Positions 828-7,247 of a stretch of 7,524 bases of DNA are shown here, in pieces. The position numbers were made by a program, and so were the translations under genes. This DNA is from a virus. Lineage: Duplodnaviria > Heunggongvirae > Uroviricota > Caudoviricetes. Below the pieces are notes generated by a model, which ran no database searches, was not told the origin of the DNA, and saw only the letters and a list, made by a program, of their open reading frames with translations. Positions within the stretch are counted from its first letter, which is position 1. Each line of letters opens with the position of its first letter. The stretch covers positions 1 to 7,524 of the IMG/VR virus record IMGVR_UViG_2693429642_000014; one strand, written 5' to 3'.

Positions 828-1991
828 TCAGAACTGATAAGTCATACCCACAGCAACGATATTATCTGTCGCAACACCGGCTTTCCGGGTAAATTCACTT
901 TCATCAATCAGGTTAATTTTATAATCAACATAGGTGGACATATTCTTGTTAAAGTAATAAGTCGCTCCGACATCAATATATTTAACCAGATCCTGATCGC
1001 CATGGTTCACACCACCAACCATAACATCCTGTCCGCGGGACTGAAGGTAGGCCAGGGACGGGCGCAGACCAAAATCAAACTGATACTGCAGTACCGCTTC
1101 AAAGTTTTGCGCTTTATCTGCAACTCCTTTATCACCAAAGGTCGTCAGATTCTGAGTTTCGGAATATGTTGTAGCCAGGTAAAGGTTGTCAGCATCGTAT
1201 TTTAGTCCGACTCCCCACATCTCAGCGTGTTTACCTTTTGCAACACTACCGGAATCAACAACGATCTGCTTTTCAGTCACTTTACCGGTTAAAGGATCAG
1301 TTTGTTCAATCGTCAGAGTACCATTCAGACCTTTTTCCTGATTATTGGTTCGGTCCGCATTAATATATGCGGCAACGATACCAAAACCTTCATATTCATA
1401 ACTGGCTGAGAAACCGTGACCATCACCATTAGCTTTCCGGAGATCACCCCGATCATTTTTACCCTGGTACTGTGCCGCAAAATTCAGGCCATCGACAAGC
1501 CCAAAGAAATCTGTATTACGATAGGTTAATACCCCGGAAGTACGGGCTGTCATGAAGTTATCGGTCTGGGTCCAGCCATCACCGCCAAACTCTGGTAATA
1601 CGTCAGTATAAGAACCAACATCGTACGCAATACCATAGTTACGACCATAATCAATGGTGCCAAACTCACCAAACTTCAGACCTGCAAATGCAAGACGGGT
1701 TTTATTACCCGCAGCACCCTCTGATTCAGCTTTATTACCAGAGAACTGATATTCCCACTGACCAAAACCAGTCAACTGGTCATTAATCTGAGTTTCACCT
1801 TTAAAGCCCAGACGTGCGTATGTCTTATCTCCATCATCCCCCTTATCACTGGAGAAATAATGGAGTGCAGTTGCACGCCCATACACATCAAGTTTATTGC
1901 CATCTTTATTGTATACTTCTGCAGCCTGCGCCCCCGCTGCAAAAATTACAGCTGCTGCCACAGCTGAAAGTGCCACTGTCATTTTTTTCAT
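828..1991 (-). CDS. outer-membrane general porin, OmpC/OmpF/PhoE superfamily, closest by eye to the NmpC/Lc/OmpD prophage-type porins; 387-aa precursor with predicted 23-aa signal peptide
   Basis: ORF with ATG start and AAGGA Shine-Dalgarno about 8 nt upstream. N-terminus [23 protein letters not shown]|[12 protein letters not shown] is a classic Sec signal with AQA cleavage site and porin mature start. Conserved porin blocks present: [108 protein letters not shown], and C-terminal YQF. Gene is markedly more AT-rich than the flanking tail genes. Confidence 0.92.
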
Positions 1992-5792: not shown

Positions 5793-5813
5793 AAAAAAAC
5801 CGCCTCAGCGGTT
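5793..5813 (-). terminator. weak terminator-like hairpin between the T stop and H start (possible attenuator)
   Basis: Minus-strand sense reads AACCGC TGAG GCGGTT followed by TTTTT: 6-bp stem (4 GC pairs), 4-nt loop, T-run. Lies in the 47-nt gap between the T stop (5822) and the H ATG (5774). Confidence 0.3.
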
Positions 5814-5821
5814 CTCATCAT

Positions 5822-6136
5822 TCATGACTGTGCTGCAAAGCTCAGCGCGTCTTCCAGCGCCGCAAACGGATCCACCTCCGGCTTATCCTCATCCTCGCCC
5901 CAGCAGAGCATGGCGTCCTTCAGTGCAACATTCATCCCCTGTGCCCCGAAAACCGCTTTCACGATCTGTGCATTACGGATATCCCCGCGCTCATCACCCA
6001 GCGGGGATACCCTGTCGAACTCCATCCACATCATCGCCTCGCTCGCACTCAGGCTGTGCCGCAGTTCGGATAACGTGCGCCCCAGACGGAGCGCAAGTCG
6101 CATCAGAAAGCGTATTTCCGGGCGGGCTACTTTTTT
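5822..6136 (-). CDS. T: T portion of the G-T tail assembly chaperone fusion, reached by programmed -1 frameshift from G
   Basis: The -1 frame relative to G is open from the slippery heptamer through to TGA at 5824..5822. Shifting at A AAA AAG gives ...KKVARPEIRFLMRLALRLGRTLSELRHSLSASEAMMWMEFD..., continuous with the 93-aa ORF in the track (5822..6103). Position between G and the tape measure gene matches lambda G/G-T. Confidence 0.8.
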   Translation of the reverse strand, partial: KKVARPEIRFLMRLALRLGRTLSELRHSLSASEAMMWMEFDRVSPLGDERGDIRNAQIVKAVFGAQGMNVALKDAMLCWGEDEDKPEVDPFAALEDALSFAAQS

Positions 6137-6501
6137 CTGGCCGCCTCTCCATCGGCGATCAGATCCAGTGCCTGACGCAGCAACCGGGCATGTACCGGAC
6201 CATAGACGACCAGCACCTGCTCCCGATCGTCCGCAGTGAACACCCGCTGCAGATCCGTATCACACAGCACATCGCAGAACAGCGTCACATCCGCTTCCAG
6301 ATTACGGCGGGTTTTCGCCCCCCCCGACAGAGTTTCGTCACCCGTATCACCGTCATTAAGCACTTCCCGCCACAGATACCAGGCCTCTGCCGAAGGTTCC
6401 CGCAGCACCACGCTGACATTTTCCCATTCAGGCACCCGCACCGTTTTATGGCGAAACCCCGACAGTCTGGCCAGTGCCAGTGTTTTCAGATCCTTTTTCA
6501 T
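6127..6501 (-). CDS. G: tail assembly chaperone G (lambda gpG position)
   Basis: ORF ends ...GEAARKK* with the slippery site at its 3' end. I prefer the ATG at 6501..6499 (MKKDLKTLALARL..., GGGGA Shine-Dalgarno about 9 nt upstream, 14 nt after the V stop) over the track start at 6549, which would overlap V by 34 nt. Acidic, small protein as expected for gpG-like chaperones. Call rests on position and the frameshift architecture. Confidence 0.75.
   Translation of the reverse strand: MKKDLKTLALARLSGFRHKTVRVPEWENVSVVLREPSAEAWYLWREVLNDGDTGDETLSGGAKTRRNLEADVTLFCDVLCDTDLQRVFTADDREQVLVVYGPVHARLLRQALDLIADGEAARKK
6130..6136 (-). other. programmed -1 ribosomal frameshift slippery heptamer A AAA AAG
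   Basis: Plus 6130..6136 is CTTTTTT, i.e. A AAA AAG on the minus strand in the G zero frame. These are the last two sense codons before the G stop (TAG at 6129..6127). Same heptamer class as E. coli dnaX. Confidence 0.8.
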
Positions 6502-6515
6502 GATGACTCGTCCCC

Positions 6516-7247
6516 TTATCCGGCTGCTGCGCTCACAGTCACGGTGCATTCAACAGACGTCACACTCTGTGCCCTCTCTGCCGAATCGGTCACCACGCAG
6601 GTATATTTCCCCGCATCGGCGGACTGCGCGTTTGGCTTACTGAAGGTGTCAGCCGTCTGCCCCTCAACCGGCTGACCGTCCTTCTTCCAGGCGTATTTAT
6701 ACGGCGGCGTTCCCCCGTTGGCACTGACTGACATTGTCAGCAGCGCACCGGTATTCACGGTAAGTGTTTTATCCAGATTTTTCACAAACGCCAGCGGTAC
6801 CACAAAGGACACCGGTTTGCCTTTCAGACGCAGTGAAAACGTTGCTGCCACCACGCCGTTGGTACCGGATGACCAGGTGTGCTGACGCACTTCCGCCAGG
6901 AATTTAAAGCCCTTTCCGGACGGAAACTGCACCTTAAACGCATACAATGAGTCATTGTCATAGGCATCACGCAGGGCATTCTGGGCCTGATTCAGATAAA
7001 AATTACCCGACATGGAAATCTCGGACGATGCGCCCAGACCGTTGATGTTCTCCTGCTCCGTGGAGCAGAGCGTGGTCACATCAATATCCTGTTTCTGACC
7101 GGCGGTGAACTGGACTTCCTTGATGGAGCAGTCCAGGCGCAGATATTCCGCCTTCTCCATAGTTTCAGCAGTCGCCGGGGCAGATGAAATCATCACCTGC
7201 GTCAGCTGTGAACGTTCATACAAAGCAGACATTCGTAACCGGCTCAT
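6516..7247 (-). CDS. V: major tail (tube) protein with C-terminal Ig-like domain (lambda gpV position)
   Basis: First gene of the tail block, immediately upstream of G. The C-terminal ~80 aa (LTVNTGALLTMSVSANGGTPPYKYAWKKDGQPVEGQTADTFSKPNAQSADAGKYTCVVTD...) has the hallmarks of a bacterial Ig-like domain, as found at the C-terminus of gpV. No recognisable identity to lambda V in the N-terminal domain. Start is uncertain: ATG 7247 has GGAGG about 20 nt upstream (too far), with alternative ATGs at 7232 and further in. Confidence 0.7.
   Translation of the reverse strand: MSRLRMSALYERSQLTQVMISSAPATAETMEKAEYLRLDCSIKEVQFTAGQKQDIDVTTLCSTEQENINGLGASSEISMSGNFYLNQAQNALRDAYDNDSLYAFKVQFPSGKGFKFLAEVRQHTWSSGTNGVVAATFSLRLKGKPVSFVVPLAFVKNLDKTLTVNTGALLTMSVSANGGTPPYKYAWKKDGQPVEGQTADTFSKPNAQSADAGKYTCVVTDSAERAQSVTSVECTVTVSAAAG

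Follow-up and report, generated by a model that had tools for sequence, protein, structure and literature searches.

The window, by which we mean the whole 7,524-nucleotide stretch analysed here, encodes a lambdoid tail module whose genes, assigned with Pfam, run in the order V-G-T-H-M-[porin]-L, with L represented by its start; every gene and sequence feature of the window described below lies on the minus strand. The stop codon of tail gene M (2198-2539) and the ATG of tail gene L (618-616) border a 1.6-kb cassette (about 619-2205) that holds the porin gene (828-1991). In phage vB_EcoS-569R3, which is free of the cassette, the stop codon of M and the start codon of L share bases (ATGA). The GC content is 25-48% within the cassette versus 56-63% in its flanks, and the insertion is discrete, deviant in composition and equipped with its own terminator, all of which are hallmarks of a moron. 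The cassette is thereby shown to be autonomous moron-type cargo between tail genes M and L. An initial sequence-only reading had called the porin phage-borne, in agreement with this position between two tail genes of a lambdoid prophage. Six further loci, whose tail modules differ, show the same M-porin-L order, and one of them carries an allele lacking the loop insert described below.

Several other elements were noted in the tail module. A tail assembly chaperone ORF (Phage_TAC_1, 6127-6549) is followed by a Phage_tail_T ORF (5822-6103); in lambda, such a G then T arrangement yields a G/GT product by programmed -1 frameshifting. The major tail tube protein (6516-7247) has a C-terminal Ig-like domain at residues ~154-232 (Ig_2, Ig_3, I-set), and its homologues are labelled 'fibritin' in one phage record and 'Hoc-like head decoration' in another. 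Between the T and tape measure genes, a stretch at 5793-5860 that ends in a hairpin and a U-run weakly matches isrK, an Hfq-binding sRNA family (Rfam, 27 bits against a gathering score of 50, E 0.009).

The porin gene is the longest ORF over bases 1221-1361, the interval singled out by the sequence-only reading, and encodes a 387-aa precursor. Because residue 1 of mature OmpC aligns to residue 24 of the query, the signal peptide was assigned to residues 1-23 (1923-1991), with cleavage between AQA and AEV. The mature porin of 364 aa ends in YQF, and compares with chains of 346 aa for E. coli OmpC, 340 aa for OmpF and 330 aa for PhoE; a cleavable signal peptide and a C-terminal Phe, both expected of general porins, are thus present. 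The Pfam model PF00267 (Porin_1) is matched over all of its positions (1-337 of 337) with 469 bits against a cut-off of 23.7 (E 1e-140), the 337 profile positions being stretched across 359 residues of the protein, and PF13609 is matched as well. The best NCBIfam match is the 'porin OmpC' subfamily model, which is passed narrowly (496 bits against a cut-off of 484), and a phmmer search against 48 solved enterobacterial porins returned E-values of 1e-97 to 1e-128. The protein is a general bacterial porin of the OmpC/NmpC type.

Both of our AlphaFold2 models, one of the window allele and one of a divergent control allele, predict a barrel of 16 strands with eight external loops, and for the window allele Foldseek gave target-normalised TM-scores of 0.87-0.92 to the crystal structures of OmpC, OmpF and OmpK36. 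The constriction loop L3, with LPEFGGD at residues 132-138, is located between strands 5 and 6. Residues L132, P133, G136 and G137 of this loop are invariant in 65 sequences, as are R60, R99 and R150, which align to R37, R74 and R124 of OmpC; at the position of OmpC K16 the window porin has R39. In general porins, the pore arginines act as part of a basic ladder facing L3. With its barrel, L3 motif (PEFGGD) and pore arginines all conserved, the protein has the appearance of a functional diffusion channel.

The AT-rich region upstream of the porin gene (1992-2197, 25% GC) contains blocks that are conserved across seven loci. A 16-mer located 113 nt upstream of the porin ATG (2104-2089), TTTACATTTTGAAACA, recurs without mismatch ~180 nt upstream of K-12 ompC, at a site that we take to be the OmpR box C1. 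Together with the retention of TTTACATT in 7 of the 7 cassette loci, this shared element suggests that the phage porin may be under OmpR control. A scan for consensus promoters returned none upstream of the porin gene; weak but conserved candidate -35 and -10 elements, TTGAAC (2079-2074) and TATTTT (2055-2050), were read by eye.

Downstream of the porin gene lies a structured, non-coding 3' UTR of ~200 nt (631-827), conserved in the seven loci as judged by RNAalifold and pair counts. It comprises helices at 806-773, 772-750 and 741-710, a U-rich stretch and a strong intrinsic terminator (654-637) followed by a T-run, located by a terminator scan. Across the seven loci, 98% of the cells are paired and compensatory changes are seen in nine pairs, a number matched by 0 of 500 shuffles and to be compared with 0-3 in slid controls. 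Neither Rfam nor the phage genome collection holds a match to the 3' UTR. IpeX, an RNA downstream of nmpC/lc, represses OmpC and OmpF (PMC8065619, PMC3333887). Identity of the 3' UTR with IpeX was rejected, since its similarity to the sequence that follows nmpC in DLP12 is confined to 35 nt at the terminator; by analogy, however, it may be an RNA with a similar regulatory function. RNA-RNA duplexes predicted for the 3' UTR with the translation-initiation regions of ompC or of the porin itself were full-length and unrealistically long, and were set aside.

Of 5426 complete E. coli genomes, about 106 contain a full-length homologue of the porin, the best at 95.9% DNA identity, and the carriers are frequently STEC, along with other isolates from humans or animals. 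The cassette is missing from every record of the phage genome collection, although a related tail module is present there without it; the porin query matched only P1/P7-type nmpC in this collection, with 73% identity over the first 540 nt. The wider prophage context of the porin is visible in the best-matching complete genome (locus L001, strain STEC2018-553). The portal gene of this carrier prophage is frameshifted (20754-23176 of L001), and the copy is therefore probably defective. The porin cassette may thus persist as domesticated cargo. An assignment of the carrier's receptor from the L001 J protein was rejected, since its tip is unrelated to those of lambda J and A8 gpJ: its similarity to lambda J ends at residue 1067, and its weak similarity to gpJ of A8, which binds OmpC, at residue 1128.

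The sequence-only reading had proposed that the 387-aa precursor is longer than usual and that the extra residues fall between the EYEGFGI and GLKYDA blocks. Both statements are borne out. With EYEGFGI at residues 199-205 and the first residue of GLKYDA at 262, 56 aa lie between the two blocks, or 57 when the interval is measured by regular expression, which counts one residue more. By the latter measure, the same interval spans 31-36 aa in about 80 NmpC/Lc/OmpD/OmpC-like homologues, and NmpC/Lc, which might have been equally long at this point, have 36 aa versus 57 in the window porin. Bases 1221-1361 translate to residues 211-257, in agreement with the peptide quoted in the sequence-only reading; these residues make up most of the external loop L5. 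An exhaustive HMMER search supplied 86 full-length representatives of 50%-identity clusters, whose counterparts of residues 206-261 have a median length of 29 aa and are at least 56 aa long in one case; in 80 porin loci of GTDB species representatives the median is 30 and the maximum 42, so that in the pooled samples 1 of 166 is as long as the L5 of the window. The closest porins in the species-representative genomes are NmpC-like genes with 69% identity, and the hairpin described below is absent from all of these closest porins.

Solved structures gave a similar picture. The phmmer alignments to most of the 48 solved porins, which include OmpC, OmpF, PhoE, OmpK35/36/37 and Omp-Pst, split at about query residues 220 and 250, indicating that nothing in those porins matches the insert. 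Compared with the 86 representatives, the remaining loops are at or below the family median with the exception of L7, which is longer by four residues; the surplus length of the porin therefore resides essentially in L5. Taken together, these four independent comparisons show that L5 exceeds its counterparts in OmpC, OmpF, PhoE, NmpC/Lc and nearly every sampled relative by ~25 residues. Long L5 loops occur sporadically elsewhere in the family (64 aa in P0133, 52 aa in P0197 and 50 aa in P0087, as regular-expression intervals). We rejected the idea that a long L5 is a prophage trait as such, because the P0087-type porin, with a different 50-aa L5, sits in a non-phage island, where it adjoins a sulfatase-family gene and an IS element.

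To place the surplus residues, the window allele was modelled with AlphaFold2 as a monomer from a 65-sequence alignment (mean pLDDT 73.7, pTM 0.73). DSSP analysis of this model and of the monomer model of the control allele P0012 (81% overall identity, with a different hairpin sequence) defined L5 as residues 214-254 (1230-1352), flanked by barrel strands 9 (203-213) and 10 (255-267). Strand parity puts these residues on the same side as L3, and the segment is therefore an extracellular loop. Neither a periplasmic turn nor a strand holds the insert; both models locate it in L5, as the earlier assignment to an extracellular loop had anticipated. In the model of the window allele, L5 is composed of a short helix (216-220), a regular two-stranded hairpin (223-246; 1254-1325) and a return segment, SGSVAKGK. 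The hairpin strands, 223-231 and 238-246, are joined by the turn DPLTGK (residues 232-237, 1281-1298); six-residue turns of the type (D/N)-P-x-T-G-K strongly promote hairpins, as in the designed GB1 hairpins. The P0012 model contains the same elements, with strands at 222-231 and 238-246. Model confidence is moderate, with mean pLDDT values of 69-74; in blocks of ten residues, the hairpin scored 65/85/63 in the window allele and 73/87/73 in P0012. Alignments show that the hairpin is absent from solved porins and from NmpC/Lc. We conclude that the tip of L5 is predicted to carry the surplus residues as a 'finger', a two-stranded beta-hairpin closed by the conserved DPLTGK turn.

We gathered 17 distinct porin alleles to compare the variability of this loop with that of the rest of the protein. 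The mean pairwise amino acid difference is 0.48 in L5, 0.16-0.26 in the other external loops and mostly 0.04-0.12, but up to 0.23, in the barrel strands; it is 0.04 in L3. L5 is thus the most variable element and the pore-lining L3 is nearly invariant. The L5 interval takes lengths of 32, 39, 41, 43, 47, 54 and 57 aa across the alleles. Three hairpin residues, D232, P233 and G236, are shared by every allele with the insert and four others, T227, T239, V245 and D246, by most, and positions 225-226, 228, 230-231, 237 and 242-244 vary freely. One face of the hairpin appears conserved and the other variable. Substitution rates were estimated by the Nei-Gojobori method in four pairwise comparisons of clearly divergent alleles with full-length or near-full-length loops. 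The dN of the insert is 0.23-0.54 versus 0.05 in the rest of the mature protein, a 5- to 12-fold excess, and dN in L3 is 0 in all four comparisons. The dN/dS ratio is 0.23-0.48 in the insert and 0.04-0.08 elsewhere, with dS ~1 and thus near saturation. The insert thus shows relaxed or diversifying change rather than demonstrated positive selection, because dN/dS remains below 1 and dS is near saturation. The proposal of the sequence-only reading that there is selection at the cell surface is accordingly no more than consistent with the data, namely with L5 being the most variable element and with its series of insertions and deletions.

Recombination has apparently contributed to this variability. 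Between the alleles of loci L004 and L006, dS is 0.20 in L5 versus 0.67 in the rest of the gene; the loops are much closer than their backbones, from which we infer that the loop was exchanged by recombination. This indicates that L5 is a hot spot of change, apparently swapped between backbones. The window allele is itself a mosaic: it is 100% identical in DNA to the STEC2018-553 allele up to about residue 300, beyond which identity to that allele falls to 77-85%, and past about residue 320 it is 97-100% identical to the alleles of L004 and L005 (strains 2012C-4502 and 2013C-3181). These values place a recombination breakpoint within the porin gene at residues ~300-320 (window ~1030-1090). In the allele of E. 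coli LZHX12 (L003, 2100-2200), a shorter L5 contains the perfect tandem duplication NGTQTV-NGTQTV, showing that slippage-type events generate length variants of L5. In another allele at the same M-L site (P0017; L012, 4001-5113), the L5 hairpin is missing and L6 carries the insertion ENIKKEDVN instead; cassette alleles therefore differ in which external loop is expanded. Since P0014 and P0017 occupy the same M-L site without the insert, the hairpin is dispensable for whatever role the cassette has.

We then compared the location of the finger with porin surfaces known to be recognized by phages. The adsorption of phage PP01 to O157 OmpC requires GVIN in loop 7, and Ser225/Pro226 of loop 5 cross-link to the PP01 receptor-binding protein (PMC12892980). 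That study uses precursor numbering, in which GVIN 303-306 corresponds to mature residues 282-285; with this offset of 21, Ser225/Pro226 are mature residues 204/205. In our alignment to EDL933 OmpC (PDB 9WCB), the break falls between positions 204 and 208 of the mature protein, so that the PP01 contact coincides with the insertion point of the hairpin. The hairpin is thus located on a surface that is used by at least one porin-dependent phage. In L7 of the window porin (residues 322-332, 996-1028), the four-residue surplus over NmpC/Lc is found in the MVGG region, where the alignment shows a four-column gap in NmpC-like sequences; this surplus aligns with the GVIN insertion of O157 OmpC, with MVGG opposite VING. 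Moreover, phage pressure on OmpK36 has selected changes in loops 4 and 5 (PMC12421954).

These observations lead us to a reading that we regard as reasonably probable, though well short of settled. In a lysogen, the cassette would be transcribed on its own and the phage-supplied porin would enter the outer membrane, where its variable and presumably outward-facing L5 finger would alter or sterically mask the L5/L7 recognition surface. Porin-specific phages, colicins, contact-dependent inhibition toxins and antibodies would be affected, and the channel would be left untouched. The outcome would be a lysogenic-conversion porin like Lc of phage PA-2.

Of the rival explanations, the strongest is a neutral polymorphism in loop length, given that alleles without the insert share the cassette; the hairpin would then be a functionless passenger fixed by drift and recombination. 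The M-L cassette houses short-insert as well as insert-less alleles, insertions are tolerated in the external loops of porins, and relatives such as P0133, P0197 and P0087 have sporadically acquired a long L5; the tandem duplication in L003 shows slippage to be a generator of length change, and the dN/dS of the insert is below 1. That same ratio, at 0.2-0.5 rather than ~1, nevertheless reflects measurable purifying selection. An ordered architecture, including D232, P233 and G236, is kept while other positions vary freely, the 57-aa frame (regular-expression interval) is retained even though alleles differ at about half of the hairpin positions, and the models of two divergent alleles agree on the hairpin. 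We therefore consider the neutral explanation rather unlikely, but one to be taken seriously.

A much less probable alternative is that the hairpin is an adhesin-like or protective protrusion beyond the LPS core, serving host-cell binding or serum resistance in the manner of OmpX, Ail or Lom. From its geometry, a two-stranded ribbon of nine residues could reach roughly 30 A, and the apparent conservation of one hairpin face opposite a variable one would fit such a role, as would the frequency of STEC and of human or animal isolates among the carriers. Lambdoid tail regions are moron sites for outer-membrane virulence proteins, of which Lom is one in lambda. However, we saw neither sequence or fold similarity to Ail or Lom nor a binding motif, and the high variability of the hairpin speaks against a conserved ligand. 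Least probable of all is a gating role instead of one in surface recognition, with the enlarged loop bent over the entrance of the pore so as to adjust the passage of antibiotics or bile or the translocation of colicins: some external loops of general porins do partly cover the channel entrance, and model confidence at the base of L5 is moderate, but a gating element should be conserved whereas L5 is the most variable segment, both models show a regular hairpin rather than a plug, and L3 and the pore arginines are unchanged.

The reading in which the finger changes or masks the recognition surface of a lysogen's porin could be extended to a complete 'porin swap'. A structured RNA from the 3' UTR, with a role analogous to that of IpeX, would silence the host OmpC and OmpF, the phage porin would maintain permeability, and its hypervariable L5 finger, together with the long L7, would keep CDI toxins, colicins and phages that depend on porins from recognizing the new coat; recombination would shuffle finger alleles between prophages. 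This extension is speculative, and we hold it to be unlikely as a whole.

The susceptibility of an E. coli cell to phages, colicins, contact-dependent toxins and antibodies is governed by its porin loops. A prophage that supplies a complete alternative porin with one enlarged, highly variable recognition loop could change the host range of therapeutic phages and the epitopes used for serotyping or vaccines, and perhaps also how antibiotics enter, in about 2% of sequenced strains. As its RefSeq label is 'porin OmpC', it is easily confused with the chromosomal gene in predictions of receptors or resistance. The coincidence of the insertion point with the contact made on OmpC by a T-even phage adhesin provides a concrete, testable hypothesis. 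Prophage porins and porin-loop variation are already known, and what is distinctive here is the L5 loop and the unusual insertion site; we found no description of a tail-module prophage porin or of an L5 finger in the searchable literature, although such absence is not proof of novelty.

Known systems close to this one include the insert-less alleles of the M-L site (such as P0014, P0017, P0009 and P0011), which occupy the same cassette position, are 85-91% identical to the window porin over the aligned residues and share the SGSVAKGK or a related L5 base, with an L5 interval of 32-41 aa. OmpC of K-12 and O157 (PDB 2J1N and 9WCB) has the same fold, with a target-normalised TM-score of 0.89 and 57-60% identity; the upstream 16-mer is common to both genes, and L7 of the window porin is O157-like. 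Unlike OmpC, whose L4 is long, the window porin has a short L4, and its hairpin sits at the S225/P226 position of OmpC-O157, which has no hairpin. The loci also differ: K-12 ompC lies between ftp and micF/rcsD, whereas the window porin lies between tail genes. We consequently rejected the possibility that it is the chromosomal ompC orthologue, given that it is not at the conserved micF/rcsD locus.

A close parallel is provided by Lc of lambdoid phage PA-2 and NmpC of the cryptic prophage DLP12, which are likewise prophage-encoded general porins of the OmpC/OmpF/PhoE family and constitute lysogenic-conversion cargo with its own regulatory signals, as the window porin probably does. Lc/NmpC-type entries (P0027, P0032, the 385-aa 'Lc/NmpC') are 68-69% identical to the window porin, from which they differ in their shorter L5 and in an L7 shorter by four residues. 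DLP12 nmpC is positioned between the Q antiterminator and the lysis genes (quuD-nmpC-essD) rather than between M and L, and is followed by ipeX, whereas the window has a different structured 3' UTR, with the terminator-proximal 35-nt stretch as the part that resembles the region downstream of nmpC. A further parallel is offered by lom and bor of lambda, autonomous late-region cargo encoding outer-membrane proteins that are expressed from the prophage. These genes belong to other protein families and occupy other insertion sites in the lambdoid late region, but they too are moron-type surface-protein cargo, and the cassette in the window shows the same moron hallmarks.
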